From the NCBI GenBank assembly GCA_049303575.1, contig JBAQNH010000002.1, positions 444,541-508,540 on the forward strand: a DNA stretch of 64,000 bases, in the 5' to 3' direction. The position numbers were made by a program, and so were the translations under genes. Position 1 is the stretch's first letter; every line of letters starts with the position of its first letter. Source of the DNA: Microgenomates group bacterium (lineage in GTDB: Bacteria; Patescibacteriota; Microgenomatia; UBA1400; MFAQ01). Below are positions 1 to 44,267 of the stretch, piece after piece. A model generated the notes under the pieces. The model saw only the letters and a list, made by a program, of their open reading frames with translations. It was not told the DNA's origin and ran no database searches.

Positions 1-85
1 TTATTATGGAGCTAAATTAGATAAGTTTGATATATATCCACTTGTATATGATTATGGTGGAGTGAAGATTTGGAGGTTAAGATAG
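1..85 (+). CDS. 3' end of an upstream gene (last ~27 codons, ...YYGAKLDKFDIYPLVYDYGGVKIWRLR*); function unknown
   Basis: Open frame 2 runs from the window edge to TAG at 83-85. A GGAGG RBS for the next gene lies inside it. Confidence 0.25.
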   Translation, partial: YYGAKLDKFDIYPLVYDYGGVKIWRLR

Positions 86-88
86 TCT

Positions 89-1969
89 ATGTGTGGAATT
101 GCTGGAAAACTCTATTTTGCAAAAGACAAAGAAGTCACTGTTTCTCAGGTAGAGAAAATGACCGAGTCAATTAAACACAGGGGGCCGGATGATGATGGTG
201 TATACATTTCCCCAGACAAAACAGTAGGCCTAGGTCACAGAAGACTTTCCATAATTGATCTCTCACCATTGGGTCATCAGCCGATGAATTATCTAAATAG
301 ATACTGGATTGTATTCAATGGCGAAATTTACAATTACCTAGATGAAAAATCCAAACTAGAAAAGTTTGGATACAATTTTTCCTCTCATTCAGACACTGAA
401 GTAATCATGGCACTATATGACAAGTATGGTTTCAAATGCCTCGATCATTTAAGGGGGATGTTTTCTTTTGCAATCTATGACGAGAAAGAAAAAACAATAT
501 TTTGTGCTAGAGATAGGGTAGGAAAGAAACCATTTAAATACTACACAGACGACAATGTGTTTATTTTTGCCTCTGAACTGAAAGCTATCCTTACTCAAAA
601 AGAATACAAAAAGGAACCAGATTTTGAAGCGATTTATCATTATCTTACTCTTCAATATGTTCCTTCTCCTCTAACTGGTTTTGTTGGAATAAAGAAGCTA
701 GAACCCGCTCATTACCTTTTTATAGATATAAAAACAAGAAAATTAATCAAAAGAAGATACTGGAAACTTAACTACAAAAATAAACTAAATCTTAGTGAGA
801 CAGAGTGGAAAAAGAGGATAATCAGTAAACTCAGGGAATCAGTAAAAATTAGGATGCTAGCTTCTGATGTCCCTGTCGGGGCATTTCTTTCAGGAGGAAC
901 TGACTCAAGTGCAATTGTCGCTATGATGAGTAGTATAAGTAATGCGCCTGTCAAGACATACACAATCAGTTTTGATGAAGAAGAATTTGATGAATCAAAA
1001 TATGCAGAAATGATTTCGAAAGAATTTCATACAGATCACACAATCTTTTCAGTAAAACCTGACGCTATTAGAATACTGCCTTTATTAGTCAAACAATATG
1101 AAGAGCCCTATGCTGACAGCAGTGCTCTACCAACATATTATTTGTCGAAGTTGACAAGAAAAGGGGTTACCGTTGCTCTTAATGGAGACGGGGGAGACGA
1201 AAACTTCGGTGGATATGAACGCTACTCTATCCAGAAAATTGCTCTTTTCCTTGAAAAATTTGGTGTCCTAAATACTCTATTTTTCAAACCAATATCTCGA
1301 ATGATCTTCGAAATAATACCTACTGTTTTTACCGAGAGACTTGCAAGATTATTTTGCATGTTGAATTGGGATTATCGAGAACGGTTCGTGGGATTTTCAG
1401 CTTATTTTACTGAAAAAAACAAATCTCATTTATATAAAAACAAACCTAACCTAAATACCTATAAATATATGTCAAGATTTTTCAATCAATCAAAATTTGT
1501 CGACAAACTTGACAACACAATGTATGGAGATTTTTCGAGCTACTTGCCAGAATGCCTTCTGTCTAAAGTAGATATTGCCACCATGTCAGTCTCGTTAGAA
1601 GGAAGATCACCATTCCTTGACCATGAATTTCTTGAATTAACGGCACAAATTCCAAACAAGCTAAAAATTAAAGGTATAAATCAATTAAAACACATTCTAA
1701 AAGAATCCTTTAGAGGATTAATCCCAGATGAGGTCATGGACAGACCAAAAAGAGGTTTTTCGGTACCTATTCAAAAATGGTTTAAAAATGATTTAAACAA
1801 TTATATTAGGAACATATTACTTTCCAAGAAGTCGAAAACGTCCACTTTGTTCGATCAAAACTACATCAGAGAAATGATAGATAATCACACCAATGGAAAA
1901 GAAAACTATGGTCACAAACTTTGGGCACTATTGACCCTAGAATTATGGTTTAGAGAATATTTTTCATGA
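89..1969 (+). CDS. asnB: Asparagine synthetase B-like glutamine amidotransferase (WbpS-type, likely sugar-acid amidation)
   Basis: N-terminal MCGIAG, where Cys2 is the class-II GATase nucleophile. SGGTDSS PP-loop at ~aa 268. Length 626 aa. GGAGG RBS at ~72. Confidence 0.85.
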   Translation: MCGIAGKLYFAKDKEVTVSQVEKMTESIKHRGPDDDGVYISPDKTVGLGHRRLSIIDLSPLGHQPMNYLNRYWIVFNGEIYNYLDEKSKLEKFGYNFSSHSDTEVIMALYDKYGFKCLDHLRGMFSFAIYDEKEKTIFCARDRVGKKPFKYYTDDNVFIFASELKAILTQKEYKKEPDFEAIYHYLTLQYVPSPLTGFVGIKKLEPAHYLFIDIKTRKLIKRRYWKLNYKNKLNLSETEWKKRIISKLRESVKIRMLASDVPVGAFLSGGTDSSAIVAMMSSISNAPVKTYTISFDEEEFDESKYAEMISKEFHTDHTIFSVKPDAIRILPLLVKQYEEPYADSSALPTYYLSKLTRKGVTVALNGDGGDENFGGYERYSIQKIALFLEKFGVLNTLFFKPISRMIFEIIPTVFTERLARLFCMLNWDYRERFVGFSAYFTEKNKSHLYKNKPNLNTYKYMSRFFNQSKFVDKLDNTMYGDFSSYLPECLLSKVDIATMSVSLEGRSPFLDHEFLELTAQIPNKLKIKGINQLKHILKESFRGLIPDEVMDRPKRGFSVPIQKWFKNDLNNYIRNILLSKKSKTSTLFDQNYIREMIDNHTNGKENYGHKLWALLTLELWFREYFS

Positions 1970-3036
1970 AACTATCACATTTCAAATTTTTATCCGACCC
2001 AATCGACAATAGTGTTCTAAAGCTAACAATATTAAAACAAGTCAAAGACGAAATTGTTGATGGAATATTACTTGGTAAAAGTTGCTGGTACCCTGTCATT
2101 GACGGTGTTCCCAGGATGTTAACAGCTCAATCAAAAATTGAACTACTCCAACGAAAAACTTCATTTTTAAATAAATACAAAAACAAACTTAATCCAAAAA
2201 TAATTACTGAATGGAAACAAAATATCAGGGAAACAAAAAATAAATCACCATTTGAAATACATCAACAAAAAACCGCAGACAGTTTTGCGTACGAATGGAA
2301 GAATATTTATCAAGAAAACTCATTCGAGAAAAATAATTTTTTTCATTTTCTAACACCATTTATAAAAGAGAATGATTTTAACGGAAAAATAACTGTAGAT
2401 ATTGGTTGTGGTTCTGGAAGATTTACCAAGTGGGCGGCACTAGGAGGCGCCAAGGTGGCATTTGGGGTCGATCTTGGAGATAGTGTCGAAGTTGCTTATG
2501 AGATGACGAAAACCTATGGAAATGTCGCCATAATACAGGCCGATATATATGCCCTTCCTCTAAACAGAGTAATAGATATTGCTTACAGTATCGGAGTACT
2601 TCATCACATACCAAAACCAAAACTAGGTTTCTTAAAACTAATCAAAGCGCTTAAGAAAAATGGGAAAATGCTTATTTGGGTATATAGCCGTCGTCACAAC
2701 AATAGGGCAATATATTTGTATGAACCTTTAAGGGCAATTAGTCGACACATTCCCAAACCAATTTTGTACAAGCTGTGTTACATACCGGCTTCTATTGTTC
2801 ACTTGTGGAATTTACTTTGTAAATTGTTTAAGTGGAAAAAAATGCCCTTTTTCTACTACGAAAATTTTTCTTTCAATATGAAGTTAAATGATGCATTTGA
2901 TGTACTGGCAACTCCAAAGAGCAATTATTATTATTCGGAAGAGATTGAAAATTGGTTCAAAGAAGCAAAGCTCAAAAGCATAAAATCATTTGAACATCCG
3001 GAAGCAGGGATTACTTGTATTGGAACATATGTCTAA
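1966..3036 (+). CDS. Class I SAM-dependent methyltransferase with N-terminal Trm112-like module
   Basis: CWYPVIDGVPRML resembles the Trm112/UPF0434 Y-P-I-x-DG-I-P-x-LL motif. VDIGCGSGRFT is motif I. ATGA start/stop overlap with the asnB-like gene. Confidence 0.75.
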   Translation: MKLSHFKFLSDPIDNSVLKLTILKQVKDEIVDGILLGKSCWYPVIDGVPRMLTAQSKIELLQRKTSFLNKYKNKLNPKIITEWKQNIRETKNKSPFEIHQQKTADSFAYEWKNIYQENSFEKNNFFHFLTPFIKENDFNGKITVDIGCGSGRFTKWAALGGAKVAFGVDLGDSVEVAYEMTKTYGNVAIIQADIYALPLNRVIDIAYSIGVLHHIPKPKLGFLKLIKALKKNGKMLIWVYSRRHNNRAIYLYEPLRAISRHIPKPILYKLCYIPASIVHLWNLLCKLFKWKKMPFFYYENFSFNMKLNDAFDVLATPKSNYYYSEEIENWFKEAKLKSIKSFEHPEAGITCIGTYV

Positions 3037-4117
3037 AAAAGTAATAGTTCATTTAATTCAATCGTTAGATAGTGGGGGGTGTGAAAACATGCTTCTACGG
3101 ACGTTGCCACTCATGAAGAAATTCGATCATGTAATAATCACTCTAAACAAAAGAGGAAATCTTGCTGATAAATTTGAGGGAAAAGGAGTCCGAGTTGTAA
3201 ATATCAATCAGAAGAGTCTGGTTGATTTATTCTCATATCGTCGATTAAAAATTAAGATAAAACAATTAAAACCAAATTTAATTATTACTTATTTGTTTCA
3301 TGCAGATTTGATTGGAAGATTGTATCTCCAGTCAATTTCTAAAATAAAGGTTGTCCCATTTTTACGAACAACATACAATCATAAAAATTATTGGCAAGCC
3401 AGGTTATTTGAAAAGCTTACCAAAGGATTGGTTTATGAATATCTTGCAAACTCAGAAGCAGTCAAAGATTATTATGTTAATCAGATAGGAGTCAAAAAAA
3501 ATAATATTACTGTGATTCCAAACGGTATTGATATAGATTATTACAATAGTATTCCAAAAGATCTTACACTTAGGAAGAATATGGGTATCAAACTATCTGA
3601 TACTGTCATAATTTGTGTGGCAAACCTACATGTTAATAAAGGGCACAAATATCTACTAGAAGCCTTTGAGTTGTTATATAAAACGAACAAGAATATTAAA
3701 CTATTACTAGTTGGGGATGGTGTAGAAAAGGAAAATCTCTTGAATCAAATATATAGTTATCATTCAAAAAATTATATTCTCTTTTTAGGAAATAGAAATG
3801 ATGTTCCTTTGCTTCTAAAAATATCAGATATATTTGTTCTTCCAACATTATTTGAAGGAATGAGTAATGCTATCTTAGAAGCGATGGCAGTAGGTTTACC
3901 TGTTATTTCAACCAAGATTCCTGAAAATATTTCGATTTTGGGAGCTAACGATTTAGTAGAATCGGAATCGAGTGAATCTATTTACCAAAAATTATTCCAG
4001 TATCTTTCAGGAGTAAGTTTATCAAATATGATTATAAAACAAAAGAAAATTATTAAATCAAATTTTGATCTCTCAATAGTATCCAAGGATTTTGAAAATT
4101 ATTTACAAGGGAAATGA
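3029..4117 (+). CDS. Glycosyltransferase family 4
   Basis: C-terminal FEGMSNAILEAMAVGLPVISTKIPE is the GT4 EX7E motif. The track ORF starts at 2990; the internal ATG at 3029 removes the overlap with the upstream gene. Confidence 0.8.
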   Translation: MSKKVIVHLIQSLDSGGCENMLLRTLPLMKKFDHVIITLNKRGNLADKFEGKGVRVVNINQKSLVDLFSYRRLKIKIKQLKPNLIITYLFHADLIGRLYLQSISKIKVVPFLRTTYNHKNYWQARLFEKLTKGLVYEYLANSEAVKDYYVNQIGVKKNNITVIPNGIDIDYYNSIPKDLTLRKNMGIKLSDTVIICVANLHVNKGHKYLLEAFELLYKTNKNIKLLLVGDGVEKENLLNQIYSYHSKNYILFLGNRNDVPLLLKISDIFVLPTLFEGMSNAILEAMAVGLPVISTKIPENISILGANDLVESESSESIYQKLFQYLSGVSLSNMIIKQKKIIKSNFDLSIVSKDFENYLQGK

Positions 4118-4845
4118 AACCGACATATATTTTTAGAGTTGATGACATCTGTCCGACAATGAATTGGAAAAACTTTGATCGGCTTGAAGAGATATTTGAT
4201 AAATATAATATAAAACCTATTGTAGGAATAATCCCAGACAATAAAGATACCAAATTACATGTTAATAATCCAAATATTGAATATTGGAAAAGAATGAAAT
4301 TGCTTGTAACAAAGGGGTGGGTAATTGCCCAACACGGTTATCAACACCAATATATTAATAAGGAACCTGGCATGTTAGGTATTACTAATCATAGTGAATT
4401 TTCAAAAATAAAATATTCTGAGCAATATAAGAAAATTTCATCAGGTAAAAAAATATTAGAAAAAAAATTAGGAATAAAAATAAAATGGTGGATGGCACCA
4501 TCTCACAGTTTTGATGAAACCACGTGTAAGGTATTAGTAGATCTCAAATTCAAATATATTACCGATGGAATAGCCCTTTATCCGTATATAAGAAATGGAT
4601 TAATTTGGGTACCACAACAATTATGGAAGCCTGCTAAAAAATTATTTGGAGTCTGGACGATTTGTATACATCCAAACTCAGAGAATGATATGACTTTGTC
4701 CACAATTGAACGTTTTATCGTTAACAACATGATAGGAAATTCAGATATTGACTTGTTAATTCGATATTCAATATTTAATTATCTATATTATATATATTGG
4801 AAAATAATCCATATTATGTCAAGAATTTATGAATTACATAGATAA
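4114..4845 (+). CDS. DUF2334-like putative polysaccharide deacetylase
   Basis: N-terminal FRVDDICP, and HGYQH in the middle, match the DUF2334 pattern from memory. ATGA overlap with the upstream GT. Confidence 0.5.
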   Translation: MKPTYIFRVDDICPTMNWKNFDRLEEIFDKYNIKPIVGIIPDNKDTKLHVNNPNIEYWKRMKLLVTKGWVIAQHGYQHQYINKEPGMLGITNHSEFSKIKYSEQYKKISSGKKILEKKLGIKIKWWMAPSHSFDETTCKVLVDLKFKYITDGIALYPYIRNGLIWVPQQLWKPAKKLFGVWTICIHPNSENDMTLSTIERFIVNNMIGNSDIDLLIRYSIFNYLYYIYWKIIHIMSRIYELHR

Positions 4846-5548
4846 TACATTTCGATATACCAACGCGAGTATTTACGACAGGAGGTCTATAAAACCAATT
4901 GAAAAATATATTAAGTCAATTTGGGATCCAATATTAATCAATACACTTAGAAAGAATATCTCACCGAATGATATTATATGCGATTTAGGTTCTGGAACAT
5001 TTGAATATACACAATATATGGGAATGGCAAAAGAAATATTTGCAGTAGAAATTAACAAGAAAATGATTGATGGAGGAACGAATAAAATTAAACATATTAG
5101 CAATAAAGTAAACATCCTTTGTGAAAACGCGCTTTCTAGTAGTATTGCAAATAAATCTTGTTCAATAGTTTGGATCATAGGATTGTTAGAATATGTTGAC
5201 TTGCATAAAATATTTGATGAAATAGGTCGTGTTAGTAAAAATAAGACGAAGTTATTTATCCAATTTCCTAATCTATTTCATCCATATAATTTTGGTATTA
5301 ATATAATTTATAAAATACTTGGTATACCAATAAAAAAATATCATACATTGTCAGAAGTGAAAACAATCGCACGTCAAAATGGATTTATTCTTAAAAAAAC
5401 AACGAGTAGAGGAATATTTCTACTAGTACCAGAATCAGTTCAAGACAAGCTAATTTGGCTTTGGAAAATACTTGAAAAGGTTGTAAAACCTATACAATCT
5501 ATATTTCCATTAGGAATCAACGTATTCTGTGAGTTTGAGAAAGGATGA
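4829..5548 (+). CDS. Class I SAM-dependent methyltransferase
   Basis: ICDLGSGTFEY is a motif I variant, followed by an acidic residue; a WIIGLLEYV motif II-like segment follows. Confidence 0.6.
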   Translation: MNYIDNTFRYTNASIYDRRSIKPIEKYIKSIWDPILINTLRKNISPNDIICDLGSGTFEYTQYMGMAKEIFAVEINKKMIDGGTNKIKHISNKVNILCENALSSSIANKSCSIVWIIGLLEYVDLHKIFDEIGRVSKNKTKLFIQFPNLFHPYNFGINIIYKILGIPIKKYHTLSEVKTIARQNGFILKKTTSRGIFLLVPESVQDKLIWLWKILEKVVKPIQSIFPLGINVFCEFEKG

Positions 5549-6623
5549 GACTCGACCATTGTTTGGAGATTTGCCTTATATCATGATTTGCACAAACGTA
5601 TTTATAAGCGTTTGATGATTTGGTTTTATATTCTCCTGAATTTCTAAGAAGACGATCAACCTGCTTAATAAATAATCCAAAATCATTATTTGAAAAATAT
5701 CCAAGGTTATATGTAGAAATGAAATTATCGGGGTTAACATTAAGTGATACAACAGGAGTTTTTCCAACACATGCCTGAAGATATACGTTTGGGAATCCTT
5801 CAAATTTAGATGTTCCAACTAATAGTTTAGCTTTATTAAAATACGTTTGTATTTTATCGAACGGAACACTTTCAACAAATTTAAGATTGTTAATATATTT
5901 AGATTCATTATAGATTGTGTTCCAAAGTATACGATTTGATGATTTTGGCATTATCATAACAAACTTATTATCAGGTAGTAATCTACATAATTGTAAAAAT
6001 AAATTTGGTTGTTTTACTTCTCTTGCTGATCCAACCCACAATATATATTCACCCTTTGCCTTGATTGAATTTTCAATATTAATACCATTCCTTATTACAA
6101 TAGAATTTTTATTGTGAAATTTTTTTAGGTCACTTTTTTGCTGTTTGTTTTGAACAATTACGATATCCGCATTTATTAATCCGTATCTATAGACCTGTCC
6201 AAAAAAATATCCCATTAACCTAATTTTTTCATTCGTACAGTCAACGCTACTGGCGGAACGGAATATAAAACGCTTTCCATATATTTTGCAGAATAATGCA
6301 ATTAGTCCTATTTCAAACCCTGCTGAAGATGAAATGAATATATCTGAATCTGCCTTTACAAGAGATTTCCACAATACAAAAGGAACGGCAAGAATATTAA
6401 AAATATTCTTTTTCAATGAAATAGATTTTATTATTTCGATATTCTTCTTCTTTTGATTTACAGTGCCAAAATCACCAACTATAAATTTAATCTTAAAGTT
6501 TTTGTTAGTACTTAATATTTCAGAAATTTGACCAAGTTGCGATTCCGTCCCACCAATTGAAACCGTCGAATCATTCGAAAAATATGAAAACGAAAATAAA
6601 TTTACGAAGCAAATACTTGTCAT
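5517..6623 (-). CDS. Glycosyltransferase family 4
   Basis: SKFEGFPNVYLQACVGKTPVVS is the GT4 E-x7-E region. Last gene of a 10-gene minus-strand operon. Confidence 0.75.
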   Translation of the reverse strand: MTSICFVNLFSFSYFSNDSTVSIGGTESQLGQISEILSTNKNFKIKFIVGDFGTVNQKKKNIEIIKSISLKKNIFNILAVPFVLWKSLVKADSDIFISSSAGFEIGLIALFCKIYGKRFIFRSASSVDCTNEKIRLMGYFFGQVYRYGLINADIVIVQNKQQKSDLKKFHNKNSIVIRNGINIENSIKAKGEYILWVGSAREVKQPNLFLQLCRLLPDNKFVMIMPKSSNRILWNTIYNESKYINNLKFVESVPFDKIQTYFNKAKLLVGTSKFEGFPNVYLQACVGKTPVVSLNVNPDNFISTYNLGYFSNNDFGLFIKQVDRLLRNSGEYKTKSSNAYKYVCANHDIRQISKQWSSLILSQTHRIR

Positions 6624-7378
6624 TTCTTAAGTATTGTAACTATATACGGAGACCACCATTTACAATCTCTAAATGAAATATTTAAGAGACGAGATAACCA
6701 ATCTATAATAATTTGAAATAAATATCCAATTCTTAATAACCATATATTTCCAGAAAACAGCCCAAAGTTAATTCCACCAACATAATCGTTAAATATAATT
6801 TTTAGTTTATATTCTTTTGAAATGTTTTCAAAATATTTAAGGTTCATTACTTCATCGTTGTGAATATTTAAAACTCTTCGATCAAGTATTGTTTGAATAT
6901 ATTTATTAATTCCGTTTAAATTGGGTACAATAATAATTATTAATCCTCTGGGCTTTGTTAAATTTACGTGAATTTTTATAATATCATCTAACATTTTTCC
7001 TCTAAAGTGCTCTATGAAACCTGCTGAAAAAACGACATCGTACTGTATATCATTTTTATACTTGAGAATATTTGATTTGATTAAAGTCGATTTAATATTT
7101 AGATAGTCCAGATTCCTTTTTGAGATTTCTATTGCATTATTGGTATAGTCAAGCCCGTATACTTGATATCCAAATACTGTATGAAAATAATGCATCCAAC
7201 TTCCTGGTGCACAACCAATTTCAAAAAATTCAATTTTTTTCGATTTTGATAATTTATCAATAAATATATTATTTAATCGTAAAAACGGTAAGCTATGTAA
7301 ATTTTCAGTAATTGGAAGCCTTCTTTCTCTTTTATATAACCGATTCCAATATGATTTTGAAGTCATTTCTTCCTTCAT
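6620..7378 (-). CDS. Class I SAM-dependent methyltransferase
   Basis: FFEIGCAPGSWMHYF matches motif I. The gene overlaps its neighbour in the minus-strand operon. Confidence 0.65.
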   Translation of the reverse strand: MKEEMTSKSYWNRLYKRERRLPITENLHSLPFLRLNNIFIDKLSKSKKIEFFEIGCAPGSWMHYFHTVFGYQVYGLDYTNNAIEISKRNLDYLNIKSTLIKSNILKYKNDIQYDVVFSAGFIEHFRGKMLDDIIKIHVNLTKPRGLIIIIVPNLNGINKYIQTILDRRVLNIHNDEVMNLKYFENISKEYKLKIIFNDYVGGINFGLFSGNIWLLRIGYLFQIIIDWLSRLLNISFRDCKWWSPYIVTILKK

Positions 7379-7397
7379 AAGGATAAATTTATTAGAA

Positions 7398-8246
7398 TCA
7401 TTTTTTAAAAAATAGTATCTGATGGCAACCTAAATTATCTGAACTAATAATTTTCTTAACAAAAAATCCTTTGTTGCTAAAATAGTTAATTAATTCGTCA
7501 ACAGAGGCGTATTCGTACGGATAACCGCCAAGCCAATCTTTGATATCTGTCGTAAAAAACATTCCTCTATTGTTGTAGTTTTTGATGTATAAAAATGGAT
7601 TCCTCAAGGTCAGAATGTATCCAAAAACAAACCATATATAGTAAAGATACTCAATAATTTTTTTACCAAACCAACCAGAAGAATTATATGTTTTTTTTAT
7701 CTTAAGCCATAAATCTGATGAACCTGAAAACAATGCACTCAATCCCCGGTTTTTGTTATATATAGCTAATATCAAATAACTATTTTTTTTACATATTTTA
7801 ATAATATTGTTAAAGGCTTGATACATATCTCCGGTGTGATGAAGAACACCCCATGAATAGACAATGTCGAATTTTCCCAACGAATTGACGAATTTTTGAT
7901 TCAATATAGAACCATGTTTTACAAGCCAATTAATGGGATTATCCTCCTGTTGTTTAAGACGATTTACACACTTGATAGAATATTTATCGATATCAACACT
8001 TAGCAGCTTTGCAACCCCAAAACGGTAAGCTGCAAATGAAAACAAACCGCTTCCACATCCAATGTCAATAAATGACTTGTTTTTAAGCTGTGACTTAGAT
8101 ATGAGATCCAACATTGAATTTTCAGCTTGTATGATTTTTTTTGGTGATACTTTATTCAGGTATTCTTGCCAGTTTTCGCCAAAACTAAAATGATCTTTAT
8201 CCTTGTATGAATTTTCATATAATAAATGGTGATCTCTTTTTTTCAT
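7398..8246 (-). CDS. Class I SAM-dependent methyltransferase
   Basis: FIDIGCGSGLFSFAA is motif I; VDID and VYSWGVLHH follow downstream. Confidence 0.75.
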   Translation of the reverse strand: MKKRDHHLLYENSYKDKDHFSFGENWQEYLNKVSPKKIIQAENSMLDLISKSQLKNKSFIDIGCGSGLFSFAAYRFGVAKLLSVDIDKYSIKCVNRLKQQEDNPINWLVKHGSILNQKFVNSLGKFDIVYSWGVLHHTGDMYQAFNNIIKICKKNSYLILAIYNKNRGLSALFSGSSDLWLKIKKTYNSSGWFGKKIIEYLYYIWFVFGYILTLRNPFLYIKNYNNRGMFFTTDIKDWLGGYPYEYASVDELINYFSNKGFFVKKIISSDNLGCHQILFFKK

Positions 8247-8262
8247 GGGAAGTAAAAACTAT

Positions 8263-9561: not shown

Positions 9562-10349
9562 TTTTTAATTAAAAGATAATTCTTTGTAAATTTAGTGTTA
9601 GAGTCAACTTTTATTATCCAATCATCACTAATTTTTTTTAAAAATTTGTCTACCACCCTTCTCAGTCCTGAATCGCAGCCGTAATCGTCAAAAAGGATAT
9701 AAGCTTTATCAGCAATAAGATCTCCGTCAATTAAAATATCGAAAATTTCTATTGCAGATTGGGAAACATCACAATCAATGTGTATAAAACAAAACCCCTT
9801 TACATTTATAGTCATTAGATATTTAAGGATCTCCTGTTTTTGTCTATATAAATATTTTTTTATGTGAATTTGTTTTATTGTTTCAGGATATAAGATATTG
9901 CTATTCAGTACATTTTTTTTACACAATCTTAACGACGTATTATTAAACTGTCCCTTAAAAAACAGTTTGTCTTCATAAGGCAATCCTATAAAACCATCAA
10001 TACCAATCAACTTCTTGTTAATAATCGCGAATCTTTCCATAAAATATGCAATCCAAAGCAATGAAAATCCTCGCCATGATCCAAATTCAATAAATTCACC
10101 CTTCAACCCAGAACACTTACTGATAATTTTTTTAAAGTTTATTAATCGACCAATTTGGTGTTCAAATTCTCTATTACCAGTGTTCTTTATTTTATCGTAA
10201 TATTTTTTATTTAAATCATTAATATTATAAATTAAACTCATCGGCTTTAAACTATCTAACAAATTATATTTTTTTATCCCATTAGCCATTAAATATAATT
10301 TGTTAGAAAGTTTTTCTCCTAAAATATTTTTAATAATCTTTTTTATCAT
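9558..10349 (-). CDS. TylF/MycF-family (macrocin-type) sugar O-methyltransferase
   Basis: GEFIEFGSWRGFSL matches the TylF E-x-G-v-w-R-G motif. HIDCDV...ILFDDYG matches the TylF Mg/SAM region. Confidence 0.6.
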   Translation of the reverse strand: MIKKIIKNILGEKLSNKLYLMANGIKKYNLLDSLKPMSLIYNINDLNKKYYDKIKNTGNREFEHQIGRLINFKKIISKCSGLKGEFIEFGSWRGFSLLWIAYFMERFAIINKKLIGIDGFIGLPYEDKLFFKGQFNNTSLRLCKKNVLNSNILYPETIKQIHIKKYLYRQKQEILKYLMTINVKGFCFIHIDCDVSQSAIEIFDILIDGDLIADKAYILFDDYGCDSGLRRVVDKFLKKISDDWIIKVDSNTKFTKNYLLIKK

Positions 10350-10891
10350 TTTTTTATTTTATCCCAAACACCTGATCTATTAATAAGGCTCAGACTAAAC
10401 AAGTCAAATGGTTCGAAGAATTTTTCCAATATATGAAGGCATGCTTCTGCCACAGCACCCTCACCACCCCTCGCTTTTGTTACGTAGTCTGCCAATTCTT
10501 TTGTTTTATAAAACGCATTTGCAGGAGCGATACTGTATCCTACTTTTTTAAACACCAACGGGTCGTATATTCCGTCGCCCATATATATTGTCTCAGCAAG
10601 GTTGTATCTTTGTTCAATCCATTCAACTCGGTTGAAAGTGCTCACCAAATCTAAAGGAAGCTTCATGTCATCAGCAATCCTTTTCTTTGTTATGGCAAAC
10701 CCATTTTTATCACCGGAAATTGCGTGAATCACTAGTTTATCCTTTAATAAAGATAAAGCATCGTTATCCTCTGGTCCGAATTTTTTCATCACCTTTCCTT
10801 CGGTAGTATAGAAAAACGATCCATCAGTAAAAACACCATCGACATCGAGAATAAGATATTTAGGTTTCGTCATTTTTGTAGTTCTCTCCAT
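10346..10891 (-). CDS. HAD-IIIA phosphatase, KdsC/YrbI family (ulosonate/sugar-phosphate phosphatase)
   Basis: LILDVDGVFTDG is HAD motif I in the KdsC layout. The C-terminal MGDGIYDPLVFKKVGYSIAPANA is KdsC-like. Confidence 0.75.
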   Translation of the reverse strand: MERTTKMTKPKYLILDVDGVFTDGSFFYTTEGKVMKKFGPEDNDALSLLKDKLVIHAISGDKNGFAITKKRIADDMKLPLDLVSTFNRVEWIEQRYNLAETIYMGDGIYDPLVFKKVGYSIAPANAFYKTKELADYVTKARGGEGAVAEACLHILEKFFEPFDLFSLSLINRSGVWDKIKK

Positions 10892-12438
10892 AGATTTAAT
10901 TTACCAAAATAAAATAAGAACAAGTCAAATGGGTGATGATGAAGCGGAGACATATTAAGCCAAATTAGCGCAGAGAGTATTCTTACCTTTTTCTCGTTAA
11001 ATTGATTTTTATCAATAAAGTCAAACAAAACTTTTTGACATTGAACTAAATTTTCTTTTCTCAATATGTCGCAAGAAATCTTTCCTCCCTTTATATCAAT
11101 GGTAAAAAGATTTTCATTTACGATTCCGTGGTTCACTACCAAGTTGTGGTTTAGTTTTGCCAAATCATAATACTTATCACCAGATATGAGCAATCCTCCA
11201 AAATCCTGACGCCAGTCGAGTAGGGAATAGCCAGATTTTGTCTTAATTATATTGTCGAGTATAAAGTCACCATGGAACATACTCTGCTCCGCTTCACACA
11301 ACTCATTAAAATCTAACTTCTTAATTATTTCTTTTATTGAAGGAACAATCTCGCCATTAATAACGTCTTTTTGATCAACAATAGATCTAGAACTAAGAAA
11401 CTTATCTATTCTTTGAATTGTTTTTTTATAATAAAAATCTCTACAAATTGATTTGAACTTTTCATTACCAACCTCTTTAGTTTTTTTCCACAATTTTTTA
11501 TTTGCCCAATTTAAGAACTCTCGAAAGTCATTTGGATTTGCGACAGTTGAATATAGATCGCCTTGTGAATATTTATATTTAAAAAAGTTACTTTTCACAC
11601 CTTCTATTTTTGGAACCAATCCCTTAAGTATCTCTGCTCTTTTTACTCTCTTGGTTATGAGATCTTTATCCGAAAAAAACTTTACAACAAATTTATCAAA
11701 TATAAATATCGATTCTCCAAGCTTATCTAAAATATAAAAAGTATCATTTATTTCCTGTCTTGCTTTTTGTAAACACTCAACGTTTCCAGTGTCGTACCAC
11801 TTTTTAAAATCAACCGCTTTAAAACCAATCTCATTCTTAAACATGACATTTAAAGCCTTCACGTCATTTAATGATGAATCATTAGGATTTTTCTCGTATA
11901 GATTTCCAAGTGAAGACCAAAAGGCTTTAAAGTCGTTTATTCCCACAAGACCAATGTGTAGAAAATCAGGATCAAAATTTCCTTTGTCATATATTTCCTT
12001 AACTTTTTCTTCGATGACATCGAATGAGGAATATGCAGATGACCCTTCTCCTTTAAATCCTCCAATCCAGTTCTGGTTTGGAACCGGAATTTTTTGATCC
12101 ATCACGAGGGTGTCAGCTGCATGATAAATAAACGGACACATAAGAGCTTTCTTCGCCTTCAGCATTGAGTACCCGAGACTAGTTCCTGGACCCTCGTATT
12201 TATCCACTGTCACAAACTCGAAAGTTCTGTCCGGATATACCAGCTCCAAAAAGTCTCTTACCTGATTACCAAAATACCCAAGAGTAATAACAAACTCAGT
12301 TTTTTTTGGATAGGCCTCAATAATGTATGAAATCGCTGGTTTTTTCCCCACCTTAACTAAAGATTTATTCGTATATTGAGTAATTTCACCCAATCTAGAT
12401 CCAGTCCCCGATGTAGTAACTAGTACTTTAAATTTCAT
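10870..12438 (-). CDS. Bifunctional nucleotidyltransferase (N-term) / APH-ChoK-fold kinase (C-term) fusion; substrate unknown
   Basis: N-terminal TTSGTGSRLGE...SLVKVGKKPAISYII is an NTP-transferase G-x-G-T-R-L fold of LicC/RmlA type. C-terminal HGDFILDNII is the Brenner catalytic loop of APH/choline-kinase-like enzymes. Confidence 0.6.
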   Translation of the reverse strand: MKFKVLVTTSGTGSRLGEITQYTNKSLVKVGKKPAISYIIEAYPKKTEFVITLGYFGNQVRDFLELVYPDRTFEFVTVDKYEGPGTSLGYSMLKAKKALMCPFIYHAADTLVMDQKIPVPNQNWIGGFKGEGSSAYSSFDVIEEKVKEIYDKGNFDPDFLHIGLVGINDFKAFWSSLGNLYEKNPNDSSLNDVKALNVMFKNEIGFKAVDFKKWYDTGNVECLQKARQEINDTFYILDKLGESIFIFDKFVVKFFSDKDLITKRVKRAEILKGLVPKIEGVKSNFFKYKYSQGDLYSTVANPNDFREFLNWANKKLWKKTKEVGNEKFKSICRDFYYKKTIQRIDKFLSSRSIVDQKDVINGEIVPSIKEIIKKLDFNELCEAEQSMFHGDFILDNIIKTKSGYSLLDWRQDFGGLLISGDKYYDLAKLNHNLVVNHGIVNENLFTIDIKGGKISCDILRKENLVQCQKVLFDFIDKNQFNEKKVRILSALIWLNMSPLHHHPFDLFLFYFGKLNLWRELQK

Positions 12439-13117
12439 TTTTCAATTTATTATCAATTGTTTTCCTGAACTCTTTGATTTTTACATTAACTTTCACGTCT
12501 GGCTTAAAGATTGAAGATGTACCACAGACAAGAATGTCTGCTCCTGCTTTAATCATTTCTGCTGCAGTATCCGGATTTACTCCACCATCAATTTCAATAA
12601 GAATCTTTTTTCCAGAAGTAATAATCTTTTCTTTCAAGTCCGAAATCTTCTTAAATATTCCAGGAATTACCTTATGTCCAACAATTCCAGGGTTTATAGC
12701 CATTAGCTCGACCATATCCACATCGTCTAGGATGTAGTCGAGAGCATTTAGTGGAGTCGCATAGTTCAAAACTACTCCTGCTTTAACGCCACACTCTCTA
12801 ATCTTTTTTAATGTTAGATGAAGATGTTTGCATGATTCGAAATGAACCGCAATGATATCTGCTCCAGCATCAGCAAACTCTTTAATGTATCTTCCGGGCT
12901 CTTCAGTCATCATATGAACATCGATAGGGAGATGAGAAACCTTCTTTATTGAAGATAATAGTTCAGGGTATAAGCCATATCTGGGAACAAAATTACCATC
13001 CATCATATCGAAATGGATATAATCAATTTTGCCTTTTTCTAAGTTTTTTACTTCTTTCCCAAACTCCAGGTGGTTTGCACAAATTAGAGAAGCTGATAGA
13101 TAGTATCTTTTTTTCAT
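12428..13117 (-). CDS. rpe: Ribulose-phosphate 3-epimerase
   Basis: IHFDMMDGNFVP, DVHMM, GVKAGVVLN, MAINPG, IDGGVN and AGADILVCGTSSIF are the canonical RPE motifs in the canonical order. Confidence 0.9.
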   Translation of the reverse strand: MKKRYYLSASLICANHLEFGKEVKNLEKGKIDYIHFDMMDGNFVPRYGLYPELLSSIKKVSHLPIDVHMMTEEPGRYIKEFADAGADIIAVHFESCKHLHLTLKKIRECGVKAGVVLNYATPLNALDYILDDVDMVELMAINPGIVGHKVIPGIFKKISDLKEKIITSGKKILIEIDGGVNPDTAAEMIKAGADILVCGTSSIFKPDVKVNVKIKEFRKTIDNKLKNEI

Positions 13118-13118
13118 A

Positions 13119-13673
13119 TTATTCCAAATTTGAGTGTCTTTTCCACATTGTTTCGTGAGTTTCTTTCATTTTTTCCATAAGTTCCAAAACCACGGCATCA
13201 TAAAATATTCCCAGACATTGTTCGTTCAAAGTAGTCATTGGTTGAATTGAAGAGAATCCATCAACCGACTTAGTTTTTGATGGGGCTTTTATCTGAACGA
13301 TAATATCAGCAAGTTTTCCAATTCTGGACTTTGGATCTCCTGTAACAAGTAACACTTTCGCTTTGTTTTTTTTGGCAATCAAAACCAAGTCATATATTGT
13401 TTGGGTTTCCCCAGATCCTGAACTGACAATAAATAAGTCTCCCTTACCTATTGAAGGAACCGTTGAGTCTCCCAAGGTATAAGCATTGAGTCCCAAATGA
13501 CCCAATCTCATTCCAAATCCTCTCGTGGCCATTCCTACTCGGCCAGCACCACACAAAACGATTTTATCTGCTTTCAAAATTGATGCCACTAATTGCTTGA
13601 TTTCTTTATTGTTCAAAGAATCTAACACAGTATCAATTTCTCTCAATATTCTTTTAATATAACTACTTATCAT
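13119..13673 (-). CDS. hxlB: SIS-domain sugar-phosphate isomerase, 6-phospho-3-hexuloisomerase (HxlB/PHI)-like
   Basis: CGAGRVGMATRGFGMRLGHLGLNAY, FIVSSGSGETQ and the C-terminal ...ETMWKRHSNLE align closely with remembered B. subtilis HxlB (AGAGRSGLMAKSFAMRLMHMG ... ETMFTHHANLE). Confidence 0.8.
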   Translation of the reverse strand: MISSYIKRILREIDTVLDSLNNKEIKQLVASILKADKIVLCGAGRVGMATRGFGMRLGHLGLNAYTLGDSTVPSIGKGDLFIVSSGSGETQTIYDLVLIAKKNKAKVLLVTGDPKSRIGKLADIIVQIKAPSKTKSVDGFSSIQPMTTLNEQCLGIFYDAVVLELMEKMKETHETMWKRHSNLE

Positions 13674-14997
13674 GTTTAACCAAATAATCTATTGACATAT
13701 TTATATATGATTTAATCAAATACTTTTGAATTATTATTACGATCATAGCATTTAATATGTACAAAATAACTAATGCTTGAACTGAAATAGCGTGAAAGAA
13801 TATTAATAATCCATATGCCAATATATGAAAAATATTTATCAAAGTTTGTAATAATACAAAATGTCGATATATTTCTTTTGATATAGATACAAGAATGTTT
13901 CCATTTATTGATAGATATACATAAAGTGCAGATAAAATTGAAAAACTCAGTACCAGATTTAGATTAATACTATACTTCGCACCAAACAATGAAATTGCAA
14001 CTAATATCACACCAATCATTAATATGATTAAAGGTAGTGAACAAATTAAAAATAATCTGTCGATTTTCTTTACCACTACCCTGTAGTTAATCCCAGAAAT
14101 TGAGGGAAGAAAAACATTAATAAACATTTGAGTTAACTGTGCCATCAGGTTAACTGACACCATATAATATGCACTGTAAATCCCCAAATCAGTGAAGGTT
14201 AAATATTTTACGATAATTAATTTGTCTATCGAATTAAAACCGACAGCTAATACAGTACCAATAAAGATTATCCTACCTAGTGATAATTGTTTTAATAGGG
14301 ATGAAAAATCAAAATGAGTTATATATGGAATAATTTTTTTAAAATAAATTGCCAACAACACCAGAAATCCGAAAATTAGGGATATTACAAAAAAATAATA
14401 GTCATGTCTATTCCCTAAAACAAAAGTAAAATAAAAAATAATTCCCAATATTAAAATCTCAGTAATTTTCCCAAAAAATTGATATCTAAATAAATGTAAA
14501 CCACGAATTATTGAATCAAGAAAGGCTTTATAACCTACCAATAATGAATAAATAAATGCAATTACAAAAAATGATTTTCCCAAAGAAAATCTCAAATTAA
14601 GATAATTTAGAGAAAAAATAAAAATGATTGTCAGCAATATAGAGGAAAGAAAAACAAAAAAAATCGAACTTGAAATTATTTTTTTTCGGTCAGTAATATC
14701 ATTGTTCTTAGATATTGATATCAAACTCGACACATCCAACCCGAATAACATTGGGACAATTAAGATTTGTGCGATTGTGGTAATGAGACTATATTTCCCA
14801 AATTCTTCAGGACCCATTAACCTCCCCGCATAAATATTTATTATCATCATAATTGCTGAGGCAGTAATTCCCCCAGCAACTGACCATGAAAGATGTCTCA
14901 GAAATTTTCTCATTTGATCGCTCATTTCATGCTGAAACAGCTTCAAATGTAAAATTTCGGCAACAGCGACAATACCCTTCTTAATTGTAGAAATCAT
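13663..14997 (-). CDS. Wzx-like polysaccharide flippase (MOP superfamily)
   Basis: A ~12-TM hydrophobic profile over 444 aa with no soluble domain. Its position as first gene of the glycan operon is typical for Wzx. Confidence 0.6.
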   Translation of the reverse strand: MISTIKKGIVAVAEILHLKLFQHEMSDQMRKFLRHLSWSVAGGITASAIMMIINIYAGRLMGPEEFGKYSLITTIAQILIVPMLFGLDVSSLISISKNNDITDRKKIISSSIFFVFLSSILLTIIFIFSLNYLNLRFSLGKSFFVIAFIYSLLVGYKAFLDSIIRGLHLFRYQFFGKITEILILGIIFYFTFVLGNRHDYYFFVISLIFGFLVLLAIYFKKIIPYITHFDFSSLLKQLSLGRIIFIGTVLAVGFNSIDKLIIVKYLTFTDLGIYSAYYMVSVNLMAQLTQMFINVFLPSISGINYRVVVKKIDRLFLICSLPLIILMIGVILVAISLFGAKYSINLNLVLSFSILSALYVYLSINGNILVSISKEIYRHFVLLQTLINIFHILAYGLLIFFHAISVQALVILYILNAMIVIIIQKYLIKSYINMSIDYLVKHDK

Positions 14998-15081
14998 GGA
15001 CTTATTGTATTTTAGTCTATATTTTCCTCATCTACACAGCTATGAGGAATATATAAATTTGAAAAGCTATAATAAAACCAG

Positions 15082-16632
15082 ATGTTTAGGAAATACGCTT
15101 TATATTTTTTTCCAATTTGCCTTTCACTATTAATCTCGATCAACTTTTTTTGGTCAGAATCATTTCTTTCTGGGTTTGATACCCCCTTCTATCTCTCGAC
15201 AATCAGAGATTTTGCTCGAGATGTGCCGAGTATTACCAACTATTTTATTCTTGATCGCTACTTGGTAATTGGGTTTCCAGCGTTACTTTCCAGATTGTTT
15301 AATCTTGATCCTGTGGCGTCATACCGAATCGCAATTACGGTAATTTCTGCAATTATTTCCATTCTTATTTCGAAACTGATGTTCAAGCTAACAAAATCGC
15401 GTCTGGCAGGAATTGCATTGGCATCAGCGGTGATTATTTCTCCATACCTTTTAACGTATTCATACATGCTTTTTGCCAATTACACGAGCTTTGTTATTTT
15501 ATTTGCCTTCTTTGCCATTGAGCTTGGTAAAGAGTTTCGACTTAAAAGTGTTGTTCTCGGGGTGGTACTAGGCTTAATATTTTATATCCACAATTTTTCT
15601 TCAGTGGCTTACAGTCTGGTCGTTGGTCTATATTTCATTTTTAAGTTAATCCTAGAGGACAATAGACTTTCTACTATTAAACGCGCGACCGTTATTTTAC
15701 TCATATCCTGTGTAATTGGTTTTTTCCAGATAATTAAGTATTTTCCAGTGACCCTACCACCATTTTTGACGGTTGCGTCATCGTCTTCGTTCGTCGGTTC
15801 TATTATTAATAAAATCAAAATCATTGCGCCTAGCCAACCAGCTGTATTAGGTGACGAGGTACAAAGAATCAAAGCCACATTTTTAGATGAAACAGGCAAG
15901 TATTGGTTAGTGTATTTTGTTTGTTTCTCATTGTTCGCATTTATCACCAAAAGAAAAGAAATAGTTCTTAATCTAAAAAAGTTTGCATTTCCCCTGGCCC
16001 TATTTATTGTTGGTCTAGTGTTTTCATTTCAACCCCTTGTTGGTCTAAATTTTCTACCGGAAAGATTTATTGGTCTTGTGATAATTTCCACCTTTTTCTT
16101 TTACGCCATTTTCCTGTCACTTTTTTCAAAAAGTAAAGTATTTAAAATTTTGGCCGTATTACCACTCTTGTTTACTTACCTTTCCTCGGACACAAAAATT
16201 CTTAATCGAGGCCCCGTATTCGTAAACGATATGGAAGTCTCTTTTTATCAAAAAATTGCACAAATCGTACCTAAAGAAAATTCATATATTTTACTTCCTA
16301 GTGGCAACTATTACTGGGCAAAATATTATCTTGATGGCTACACTTTTATGCCAGGTGATTACTTTATCGCTTGTGGTATTGTAAAAATACCAGATTATCA
16401 AAATTCTGCTGATGTCGCTTATGCAAAGTTACTATCAGAAAAAAGTGTCGAAGAGGCTCAACTCTTACTAAAAGCAACAAAAAATTCAATATACATGAAT
16501 ATCACGATCAAAAAACTATACATCATTACCAATCATTCAATGAACTGTAGTGAGGGATATGTATTGGACAAGCTAAGTGGTGTAAAACTAATTTTGAACA
16601 AGGATAATTTTTACCTATATGAAGTACTTTAA
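15082..16632 (+). CDS. Polytopic membrane protein with C-terminal soluble domain (candidate GT-C transferase or polymerase)
   Basis: About 11 TM segments, then a ~120 aa hydrophilic C-terminus. Divergent from the minus-strand glycan operon. Confidence 0.4.
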   Translation: MFRKYALYFFPICLSLLISINFFWSESFLSGFDTPFYLSTIRDFARDVPSITNYFILDRYLVIGFPALLSRLFNLDPVASYRIAITVISAIISILISKLMFKLTKSRLAGIALASAVIISPYLLTYSYMLFANYTSFVILFAFFAIELGKEFRLKSVVLGVVLGLIFYIHNFSSVAYSLVVGLYFIFKLILEDNRLSTIKRATVILLISCVIGFFQIIKYFPVTLPPFLTVASSSSFVGSIINKIKIIAPSQPAVLGDEVQRIKATFLDETGKYWLVYFVCFSLFAFITKRKEIVLNLKKFAFPLALFIVGLVFSFQPLVGLNFLPERFIGLVIISTFFFYAIFLSLFSKSKVFKILAVLPLLFTYLSSDTKILNRGPVFVNDMEVSFYQKIAQIVPKENSYILLPSGNYYWAKYYLDGYTFMPGDYFIACGIVKIPDYQNSADVAYAKLLSEKSVEEAQLLLKATKNSIYMNITIKKLYIITNHSMNCSEGYVLDKLSGVKLILNKDNFYLYEVL

Positions 16633-16807
16633 ACCACTCATTTTTGCTCTCACCACCGCAACATTGGATTTTTTCTACCGCGTTCTACGCCACCTTAAGG
16701 TCGATATCTGGTTCTTTGCCATTAGCTTCATGGTCTTTTTGACCATCTTTTTTGTCGTATTTAATAATCAAAAAGAATAATTAGTATCTATCTAGTAAAA
16801 TAAACAG

Positions 16808-23074: not shown

Positions 23075-23099
23075 TCTGGCTCTAGTTTACAATAAGATT

Positions 23100-29228: not shown

Positions 29229-29234
29229 AAACTT

Positions 29235-34840: not shown

Positions 34841-34841
34841 T

Positions 34842-44263: not shown

Positions 44264-44267
44264 AAAG

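Follow-up and report, generated by a model that had tools for sequence, protein, structure and literature searches.

A GC-poor gene slot upstream of gmd, probably the hypervariable part of a cell-surface glycan locus, in a Collierbacteria-like bacterium of the Candidate Phyla Radiation

In replacement flexible genomic islands, different genes of the same function, coding for exposed structures, occupy the same position, and the hallmarks of illegitimate recombination are missing (PMC4033161). O-chain clusters are poorer in GC than the genomes that carry them, and in Pelagibacterales they are mostly preserved over the long term and only rarely swapped (PMC11898729). Here we analyzed a 64,000-nt stretch of contig JBAQNH010000002.1 (the window), whose first 16.8 kb form an AT-rich block, or island, that ends at gmd, the gene for GDP-mannose 4,6-dehydratase. 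This block most likely represents the hypervariable, GC-poor portion of a locus of ~47 kb for a cell-surface glycan, carried by a Collierbacteria-like bacterium of the Candidate Phyla Radiation (CPR). Like the replacement islands of Alteromonas and Pelagibacterales, it lies at a fixed site beside a conserved gene, where different genes of the same function are found, it is lower in GC, and it has no integrase or tRNA hallmarks; like aquatic O-chain clusters, it combines long preservation with occasional swaps of whole or partial clusters, whereas its product, in a CPR host without an outer membrane, is not a lipopolysaccharide O-antigen.

The GC content was 31.3% at positions 1-16650 compared to 41.8% at 16651-64000, a contrast of ~10.5 points. 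A sequence-only reading of the same DNA had put these values at 29% and 47%; the contrast holds, while its size had been overstated by sampling 60-nt stretches. In a two-segment maximum-likelihood scan, composition changed at 16804 (gain 294 nats), which is 4 nt short of the gmd start codon (16808) and inside the interval (16632 to 16808) that had been proposed for the break. GC at third codon positions (GC3) ranged from 0.20 to 0.34 in island genes and mostly from 0.37 to 0.54 in genes past 27 kb, and GC at first and second positions was likewise lower in island genes, so that the shift is not confined to wobble positions. The codon usage of the island was distant from that of 30 reference genes (mean z = 2.8, Mann-Whitney p = 1.4e-7), FYMINK residues made up 41% as against 32%, and tetranucleotide correlation with the right-hand part of the window was 0.67-0.83 for the island as against 0.92-0.96, so that GC3, codon usage and tetranucleotides are all shifted. 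The compositional break is real and sharp, far beyond chance. The higher-GC flank is not uniform: 16.8-27.1 kb is intermediate at 39.2% GC, and a second, much weaker change point at 27320 (gain 19.8 nats) separates this 39.2% zone from one of 42.5%; the block nevertheless stands out as compositionally foreign to the rest of the window. On the left, positions 1-1000 have a GC of 0.349 with no sign of a boundary, and the AT-rich block runs on past the window edge, which cuts an open reading frame (ORF) at 1-85; the left boundary thus lies outside the window, as had been read. Look-ups of the exact AsnB, MT1, DUF2334 and NTK proteins gave either no match or short Logan contigs confined to the window.

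The FtsZ encoded in the window is 97-98% identical to those of Candidatus Collierbacteria GW2011_GWA2_42_17 and GWA1_42_60, the top 120 FtsZ matches are all at least 74% identical, and every organism-named one among them is Collierbacteria, which points to a Collierbacteria-like CPR bacterium of ~42% GC as the host; a reduced dcw cluster and DUF4012 in the window are in keeping with this. Relatives were anchored on Gmd homologues, which are 84-99% identical in such Collierbacteria-like organisms. Six relatives (L033, L035, L120, L121, L122 and L124) become homologous to the window at the nucleotide level only from 16768-16789 onward, 20-40 nt ahead of gmd, and this start coincides with the GC change point; the conserved backbone of the locus begins exactly at the putative gmd promoter. 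To the left, variable DNA abuts gmd in L033/L034, L035/L036, L037/L038, L119, L120, L121, L122 and L124; the genes there, for methyltransferases, glycosyltransferases, flippases and GT-C-like proteins, form at least five different sets. The set shared by L033/L034 and L121 consists of two methyltransferases, proteins of 717 and 343 amino acids (aa), a PMT_2 protein, a GT2 enzyme, and membrane proteins of 463 and 566 aa; L035/L036 carry a 46-49% identical version of the last two, and L120 (Gmd 97% identical) has unrelated AT-rich genes upstream of gmd. What the relatives hold in this place thus differs in its genes but not in its functional kind, and it includes a GT-C-like membrane protein beside gmd. 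Of five alternative sets whose GC was measured, four were GC-poor (upstream versus downstream: L119, 30.6 vs 39.2%; L120, 32.1 vs 42.0%; L121, 35.4 vs 41.8%; L033, 36.5 vs 40.8%), and the fifth hardly differed from its surroundings (L037, 40.9 vs 42.0%). The site upstream of gmd is a standing hypervariable slot and not the DNA gain of one strain.

Fic and Bro-N domains are often associated with phages or defence. In L037/L038, whose Gmd is named for Collierbacteria GWC2_43_12, genes with these domains lie at 4781-8036 among the glycan genes of the slot.

At the right end and in the island ORFs in view, searches for the features of a classical integrative island (integrase, tRNA or tmRNA target, direct repeats) failed. 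No tRNA was found in the 64-kb window and no integrase or recombinase domain in the 16 island ORFs (Pfam/NCBIfam), and repeats at the right boundary were short, weak and at chance level, in agreement with the earlier observation that none of these marks the boundary. The 175-nt junction spacer holds no remnant of the relatives' upstream gene by blastn or tblastx; a terminator-like hairpin (16730-16746) and a promoter-like site (16739-16768) can be seen in it, although the scan gave nothing beyond chance.

The island consists of a plus-strand arm (89-5548) and a minus-strand arm running from 14997 down to 5517, followed by the plus-strand gene of a 516-aa membrane protein, Mem516 (15082-16632). 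Every item of gene content that the sequence-only reading had listed (a Wzx-like flippase, three GT4/CgeB-like glycosyltransferases, five S-adenosylmethionine (SAM) methyltransferases, an AsnB-like amidotransferase, a DUF2334-like deacetylase and a sugar-phosphate module) was recovered by Pfam or NCBIfam, with two GT4 enzymes and one weak CgeB-like protein as the glycosyltransferases. The closest relative, L119 (Gmd 98.5% identical, backbone genes 76-98%), aligns by blastn over its positions 8255-18046 with window 15062-24852 at 83% nucleotide identity. Its left arm is more diverged (MT1 77%, GT4a 55%, DUF2334 64%, GT4b 50%, MT4 63%), with no homologue of MT2 at 35% identity or above. The segment at window 8.25-15.06 kb is replaced in L119 by one methyltransferase and, at the position of the flippase Wzx1, a flippase only 27% identical to it, and the six-gene sugar module is absent. 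Mem516 is 87% identical in L119, and since Mem516 and the junction share a backbone-like divergence from L119, the right part of the island is old; this part has 31-35% GC in both organisms, so that the low GC on both sides of the split is persistent and gives no sign of recent arrival. If a Wzx flippase is matched to its repeat unit, as established Wzx biology suggests, a module and its flippase allele are expected to travel together. Turnover thus appears to be nested, the sugar module moving with its own flippase allele.

The variable region also reaches beyond the coordinates first given for the block, into 16.8-27.1 kb. Collinear blocks shared with L033 lie at 16787-17833, 18600-20581, 22379-23104, 24159-25834 and 27148-32431, and four window-specific inserts sit between them, which makes 16.8-27.1 kb itself a mosaic and accounts for its intermediate GC. 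The stretch from 27142 to 47640 runs collinear with L033 and L121, its nucleotide identity to them being 78-83%.

Beyond Collierbacteria, the genes of the island have homologues in many CPR lineages. Among species-representative genomes, AsnB is 67% identical in WWE3, 64% in Moranbacteria and Shapirobacteria, 63% in Berkelbacteria and 53% in Saccharibacteria, and no Collierbacteria were found among the AsnB-anchored loci of these genomes. The trio AsnB-MT1-GT4a recurs in the CPR loci L011, L012, L014, L015 and L017, and the WWE3 contig L012 has the same two convergent arms, with TylF and the HAD phosphatase of the sugar module; this contig has 33% GC, while the name of its genome indicates 41%. 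MT1 and GT4a are closer to L011 (80% and 70%) than to L119 (77% and 55%), and are 73% and 61% identical, respectively, in L012; MT4 is 49% identical in L007 and L012. That some left-arm genes are closer to other lineages than to the closest relative argues for exchange. The closest homologues of the island genes, as a comparison by best-match taxonomy proposed with the sequence-only reading now indicates, lie in other CPR phyla (WWE3, Moranbacteria, Berkelbacteria), and we infer that the cassette genes circulate in a CPR-wide pool. Horizontal exchange would be the best account of the island content as judged from these sequence comparisons, and the content seems to turn over in nested pieces by recombination with an AT-rich glycan gene pool common to CPR phyla. 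The contigs L011 (CAZMCB010000001.1), L017 and L021 are labelled 'uncultured Pseudomonadales' or 'Bdellovibrionales' and carry CPR-like glycan cassettes (29-33% GC in L011 and L021); these taxonomic labels look unreliable.

O-antigen and capsule loci are already well known to be laid out in this way. As in the Wzx/Wzy-dependent enterobacterial O-antigen (rfb) and group 1/4 capsule loci, a low-GC, serotype-specific block carries glycosyltransferases, sugar-nucleotide genes and a cognate Wzx, the initiating phosphoglycosyl transferase is encoded outside the variable block, and the flippase allele co-varies with the repeat-unit genes; unlike in those loci, there are two Wzx genes in one locus here, and methyltransferases are unusually many, five being encoded in the island and the locus as a whole having at least eight. 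The aquatic islands differ in that only one boundary is observed here and in that turnover is visibly nested, a sugar module and its flippase being swapped inside an older island. The island would build or modify a lipid-linked oligosaccharide with two GT4 enzymes, the 432-aa transferase and five methyltransferases; the AsnB-type amidotransferase would turn a carboxylate into an amide, and the DUF2334 enzyme would act like a de-N-acetylase. Initiation would rely on the Bac_transf enzyme of the backbone, polymerization or ligation would probably be supplied by the backbone too, and the product would be exported by the island's own flippase allele, Wzx1.

The least-known part of the locus is the uncharacterized NTK module, a nested block of six genes within 8263-13673, in the order HxlB, RPE, NTK, HAD, TylF and 432-aa transferase, named after a 522-aa fusion of a nucleotidyltransferase with a small-molecule kinase (NTK). 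The best PDB match of the HxlB-type isomerase is B. subtilis YckF (4e-39); the best matches of the ribulose-phosphate 3-epimerase (RPE) family enzyme are ribulose-5-phosphate 3-epimerases, with AlsE at 4e-39, while among the family models that of allulose-6-phosphate 3-epimerase is a strong second; and the HAD phosphatase matches KdsC and KDN-9-phosphate phosphatases, while the 432-aa transferase has no PDB sequence match. The N-terminal domain of NTK shares the sugar-1-phosphate/phospho-alcohol nucleotidyltransferase fold of GalU, RmlA, MurU and LicC, with LicC matched by sequence profile at 1.7e-8. The C-terminal domain was modelled separately because the N-terminal domain had dominated the whole-protein fold search; its model has the APH/choline-kinase fold, matching ethanolamine and choline kinases and APH(2''), and this fold extends, at a template-modelling score of ~0.5, to glucosamine kinase, methylthioribose kinase, maltokinase and fructosamine-3-kinase. 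Across 29 homologues, the kinase motifs H389-G-D391...N396 and D408 are invariant, and in the GxGxR loop G13, L16 and G17 do not vary at all and G11 hardly does. More than 2378 homologues of NTK were found, some of which are fused to TylF (P0068), to the HAD phosphatase (P0080, P0115, P0119) or to a PMI-type cupin (P0120).

The order HxlB-RPE-NTK-HAD-TylF is kept in L007-L010 and L012, where genes for a 376-378-aa methyltransferase and a 425-432-aa transferase often come next, and the module order is also found in L039. In L007, HxlB is 78%, RPE 86%, NTK 85% and the HAD phosphatase 91% identical, and homologues of MT1, GT4a and MT4 are present as well; the HAD phosphatase is 82% identical in WWE3 L012, TylF is 57-61% identical beside the module in L007-L010 and L012, and a 42% identical homologue of the 432-aa transferase comes after the module in L008-L010. 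NTK is identical to the NCBI protein WA052_02835 from a 'Microgenomates group bacterium' (contig of 704,398 bp); no match was found between 85% and 100% identity, though many FtsZ relatives of 97-98% exist. The ribulose monophosphate pathway of formaldehyde assimilation, to which an HxlB-type isomerase could belong, was ruled out because no HxlA partner is present among the scanned window ORFs; no HxlA/HPS domain was found there, and HxlA models match the RPE barrel weakly.

From these assignments, the module probably makes a methylated nucleoside diphosphate (NDP)-sugar. It would start from a central ketose phosphate, fructose-6-phosphate or ribulose-5-phosphate, which the RPE-family epimerase and the HxlB-type isomerase would reshape; the KdsC-like phosphatase would take off the distal phosphate and the NTK kinase domain would phosphorylate the activating position, in either order; the nucleotidyltransferase domain would add the nucleotide, the TylF-type enzyme would O-methylate the sugar, and the 432-aa transferase would put it on the glycan. 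As to the product, an NDP-allose/altrose-type hexose or an NDP-pentofuranose may be speculated. NDP-heptose synthesis runs through GmhA, HldE/HddA, GmhB and HddC, that is, by a GmhA-kinase-GmhB-transferase logic. With this pathway the module has in common a SIS isomerase whose substrate is a ketose phosphate, an anomeric kinase, a nucleotidyltransferase and, to remove the distal phosphate, a HAD phosphatase; it differs in that the kinase has an APH fold (not ribokinase or GHMP), in an extra RPE-family epimerase, and in an isomerase of HxlB type, not GmhA, whose models score only 0.004-0.007. In the salvage of MurNAc by Pseudomonas, the phosphatase MupP, the anomeric kinase AmgK and the uridylyltransferase MurU act in succession (PMC5371407, PMC5371409). 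Its counterparts in the module are a HAD phosphatase, an APH-fold kinase and a nucleotidyltransferase of MurU/RmlA fold, with MurU itself among the NTK fold matches; in contrast, the kinase and transferase are fused (522 aa), the phosphatase is of the KdsC subfamily, and the module belongs to glycan tailoring, with an epimerase and an isomerase feeding in, rather than to peptidoglycan recycling. The order of steps could follow the GmhA-kinase-GmhB-transferase logic or that of MupP-AmgK-MurU (PMC5371407, PMC5371409), and the operon context of epimerase, isomerase and TylF would argue for a sugar other than MurNAc or GlcNAc. It is quite possible, though we hold this tentatively, that the module is an undescribed pathway, widespread in CPR, by which a central ketose phosphate is turned into a rare, methylated NDP-sugar, and that many viruses, giant-virus-like contigs among them, also carry its core fusion enzyme, which may there remodel host or virion glycans. 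In the literature searched (a limited set, which is not proof of absence), no description of an HxlB/RPE/NTK module or of hypervariable CPR glycan loci was found.

Full-length relatives of NTK (41-52% identical) occur on at least 104 IMG/VR contigs, taken as viral by the database, which range from 22 to 47% GC and up to 410 kb, one of them labelled GVMAG. A Gmd-like gene lies within 8 kb of NTK in 23 of the 80 such contigs fetched (L039-L118). Only L039 among these also has HxlB, RPE and HAD, the others having NTK without the module; in L041, the neighbours of NTK are GT11, a carbamoyltransferase, HAD_2, a second nucleotidyltransferase and Methyltransf_24.

An abrupt composition step in an intergenic region of a metagenome-assembled genome is what would be seen if an AT-rich contig of another organism had been mis-joined at ~16.7 kb. 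However, an independent assembly (Logan contig L001, SRR28062879) spans the junction base for base, with 6554 of 6554 bases identical over window 12691-19244; L119, which comes from another (JGI) metagenome and another organism, crosses the same Mem516-gmd junction at 83% nucleotide identity, collinear over 15062-24852; and both sides of the junction encode parts of one glycan pathway. The junction is genuine and a mis-join is excluded, the chance of a chimera being negligible. The sequence-only reading of a horizontally acquired cassette corresponds to a recent one-step acquisition, in which the whole 16.6-kb block would have come from a donor of ~30% GC and its low GC would be an un-ameliorated signature. 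The sharp break at 16804, the shifted codon usage and amino-acid composition, closest homologues in low-GC contigs of other CPR lineages, and the gap between the self match of NTK and the next one at 85% all suit such an event, yet L119, with a backbone of ~83% nucleotide identity, shares the junction, Mem516 (87% aa identity) and a related AT-rich island (30.6% GC), which therefore predates the split; the window and L119 differ piecemeal, by a diverged left arm and the replacement of 8.25-15.06 kb; L120, L121 and L033 have GC-poor but unrelated content at the same site; and no integrase, tRNA or repeats were found, so that we regard a single recent arrival as unlikely. What stands of the earlier proposal is a coherent, strain-variable glycan cassette with exchanged content; the picture of a discrete cassette dropped into a uniform locus does not, given that the slot varies among relatives and that junction and Mem516 recur in L119 at ~83%. 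Transfer could be dispensed with altogether if the alleles were ancient, the locus vertically inherited under balancing (phage-driven) selection, and the low GC due to local mutation bias or to selection on weakly expressed glycan genes. Low GC does persist across the 83%-identity split, and in Pelagibacterales the O-chain clusters are GC-poor despite few lower-GC donors, with most shared clusters diverging like the genome (PMC11898729). Such inheritance is nonetheless very unlikely here, as MT1 and GT4a are closer to L011 (GT4a also to WWE3 L012, 61%) than to L119, the HAD phosphatase is 82% identical to that of WWE3, and NTK and the phosphatase are 85% and 91% identical to those of L007, while no FtsZ named for anything other than Collierbacteria appears in the top 120 matches (all at least 74%) and the same two-arm layout occurs in WWE3. 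The reading of the block as a hypervariable part of the glycan locus has points against it as well. Only the conserved right flank is in view, so replacement between two flanks is shown from one side. Mem516 and the junction diverge from L119 like the backbone and look vertically inherited, for which reason exchange is argued for the content to their left and not for the whole block. The persistent low GC could come partly from local mutation or selection rather than from donors, and the organism labels attached to several related contigs, such as 'Pseudomonadales' for one at 33% GC, are not to be relied on.

For the sugar module, the competing explanation is that NTK is a LicC-LicA-type enzyme making a CDP-alcohol (choline, ethanolamine or another amino-alcohol), in which case the island would add a phospho-alcohol substituent and not a rare sugar. 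In treponemal LicCA, a nucleotidyltransferase is followed by a choline-kinase-fold kinase, and NTK has the same domain order. LicC of S. pneumoniae is the top PDB sequence match of the N-terminal domain (9e-6 with the single sequence, 1.7e-8 with the profile), ethanolamine and choline kinases are the top fold matches of the kinase domain, and some NTK homologues are named 'choline kinase' by JGI; these matches weigh against a sugar route, as does the kinase fold, which does not tell a sugar from an amino-alcohol substrate. In contrast, the conserved operon partners of NTK are a sugar-phosphate isomerase, a ketose-phosphate 3-epimerase, a KdsC-like phosphatase and TylF, and NTK is elsewhere fused to such a phosphatase, to TylF and to a PMI-type cupin; identity over the fold alignment with LicC/LicA is ~16%; neither a LicD-type phosphotransferase nor a choline transporter (LicB) was found in the island ORFs; and the fold also matches the sugar kinases for glucosamine, methylthioribose and maltose (maltokinase). 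A CDP-alcohol enzyme is thus an unlikely, if serious, alternative to the rare-sugar route.

Table 1. Features of the window, with coordinates, strand and supporting evidence (pLDDT, predicted local distance difference test; aa, amino acids)
Feature	Coordinates	Strand	Evidence
3' end of ORF cut by window edge	1..85	+	frame-1 translation open to stop just before AsnB
AsnB-like glutamine amidotransferase (GATase + Asn_synthase)	89..1969	+	Pfam Asn_synthase 6.7e-94
SAM methyltransferase MT1, 356 aa	1966..3036	+	Pfam Methyltransf_11/31/23
GT4 glycosyltransferase GT4a	2990..4117	+	Glycos_transf_1 4e-31 + Glyco_transf_4
DUF2334 / polysaccharide-deacetylase-like protein	4114..4845	+	DUF2334 2.6e-48, Polysacc_deac_1 3e-11
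SAM methyltransferase MT2	4829..5548	+	Methyltransf_11 3e-9
GT4 glycosyltransferase GT4b	5517..6623	-	Glycos_transf_1 4e-11; leftmost gene of minus-strand arm
SAM methyltransferase MT3	6620..7378	-	Methyltransf_25/31/11
SAM methyltransferase MT4	7398..8246	-	Methyltransf_31 1e-13
Putative glycosyltransferase, 432 aa	8263..9561	-	weak Glyco_trans_1_2 match, 8e-5, below cut-off
TylF-family sugar O-methyltransferase	9558..10349	-	TylF 1.7e-10
KdsC/YrbI-like HAD sugar-phosphate phosphatase	10346..10891	-	TIGR01670 1.5e-22, below cut-off
NTK: nucleotidyltransferase (N-terminal) + APH/choline-kinase-fold small-molecule kinase (C-terminal), 522 aa	10870..12438	-	AlphaFold model pLDDT 92
Ribulose-phosphate 3-epimerase (RPE) family enzyme	12428..13117	-	Pfam 1.2e-64; TIGR01163 221 bits vs cut-off 212.6
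HxlB-type SIS isomerase (6-phospho-3-hexuloisomerase family)	13119..13673	-	TIGR03127 195.9 bits vs cut-off 160
Wzx-type flippase Wzx1	13663..14997	-	Polysacc_synt 8.6e-18
Divergent intergenic region	14998..15081	.	nucleotide homology with L119 begins at 15062
Mem516, 516-aa polytopic membrane protein	15082..16632	+	at least 10 hydrophobic segments
Right boundary of island	16633..16807	.	GC change point 16804 + onset of homology to relatives
gmd (GDP-mannose 4,6-dehydratase), first backbone gene	16808..17833	+	Pfam 3e-97
Strain-variable methyltransferase insert, GC 35.6%	17830..18576	+	absent L033, L120, L121; present L119
Second Wzx-type flippase Wzx2	19548..20801	+	Polysacc_synt_3 2.9e-21
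Strain-variable GT2 + methyltransferase insert	20740..22382	+	no collinear block in L033; L119 83-84%
Strain-variable GT4 insert	22974..24185	+	absent L033; L119 82%, L122 68%
Strain-variable 426-aa polytopic membrane protein, GC 33.8%	25865..27145	+	9 hydrophobic segments; absent L033, L121; L122 55%
Conserved glycan locus, GC ~43%	27142..47640	+	Pfam; GT2/GT4/PMT_2 enzymes, DUF4012, glmS
Wzy_C protein	33485..34840		Pfam
Initiating phosphoglycosyl transferase (Bac_transf)	41668..42318		Bac_transf 1.8e-57; in locus, outside island

Among the remaining island genes (Table 1), AsnB scores 481 bits with TIGR01536, above its cut-off, and 575 bits with TIGR03108 (XrtA/PEP-CTERM amidotransferase), below its cut-off; its role is presumed to be amidation of a sugar carboxylate. 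DUF2334 and MT2 are separate, overlapping plus-strand genes in the window (4114-5548), whereas L119 has a single 449-aa DUF2334-methyltransferase fusion at 1963-3312, the methyltransferase half of which has no close match to MT2; the fusion hints that the two activities may share one substrate. Mem516 has no Pfam or NCBIfam match, and its profile found none in PDB. Its family is tiny: a search of 1.84 billion clustered proteins gave 12 representatives at E <= 1e-3, of which two distant members match PMT_2 (2.8e-6) and one matches DUF6541. PMT_2-like proteins hold the position of Mem516 in L033 and L035, with no significant pairwise similarity to it, and our best guess from these distant relatives and same-position proteins is that Mem516 may be a very divergent GT-C-type glycosyltransferase. 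No Wzy_C match was found in the island, the one Wzy_C protein being encoded in the backbone.

To the right of gmd, the backbone holds two further SDR enzymes and the second flippase, Wzx2, which had been predicted for the flank and is 82% identical in L119 and 50-62% in other relatives. The strain-variable 426-aa membrane protein has no Pfam match and is possibly a polymerase. A glmS ribozyme/riboswitch lies at 45742-45900 on the plus strand (Rfam RF00234, 45.6 bits vs a gathering score of 37), immediately ahead of glmS (45916-47640), where the glycan locus ends on the right, and a lone minus-strand gene of the conserved backbone, for a ManC-like nucleotidyltransferase (40595-41617), is a codon outlier (z = 3.5) of normal GC (40.6%). 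The glycan locus is followed by a reduced dcw cluster at 47798-57932, in the order mraZ-mraW-ftsI-mraY-ftsW-murG-(279 aa)-ftsA-ftsZ, in which the murE/F/D/C ligase genes are missing from the stretch from ftsI to murG; such a reduced cluster is typical of CPR genomes. An ORF of more than 890 aa (61329-64000, plus strand) runs off the window end, and its N-terminus looks, by eye, like that of a class I aminoacyl-tRNA synthetase.

Most CPR bacteria are episymbionts whose genomes are tiny and whose surfaces mediate host attachment and phage recognition. In the organism analyzed here, ~47 kb, or ~7% of a 704-kb contig, is given to a glycan locus with a hypervariable AT-rich slot, which suggests that the strain-level 'glycotype' diversification of free-living bacteria is also at work in CPR, drawing on a cross-phylum gene pool. 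With the gmd boundary as a fixed anchor, glycan types can be catalogued in Collierbacteria metagenomes, and in the recurring NTK module there is a concrete candidate, open to cloning, for a new sugar-nucleotide pathway.

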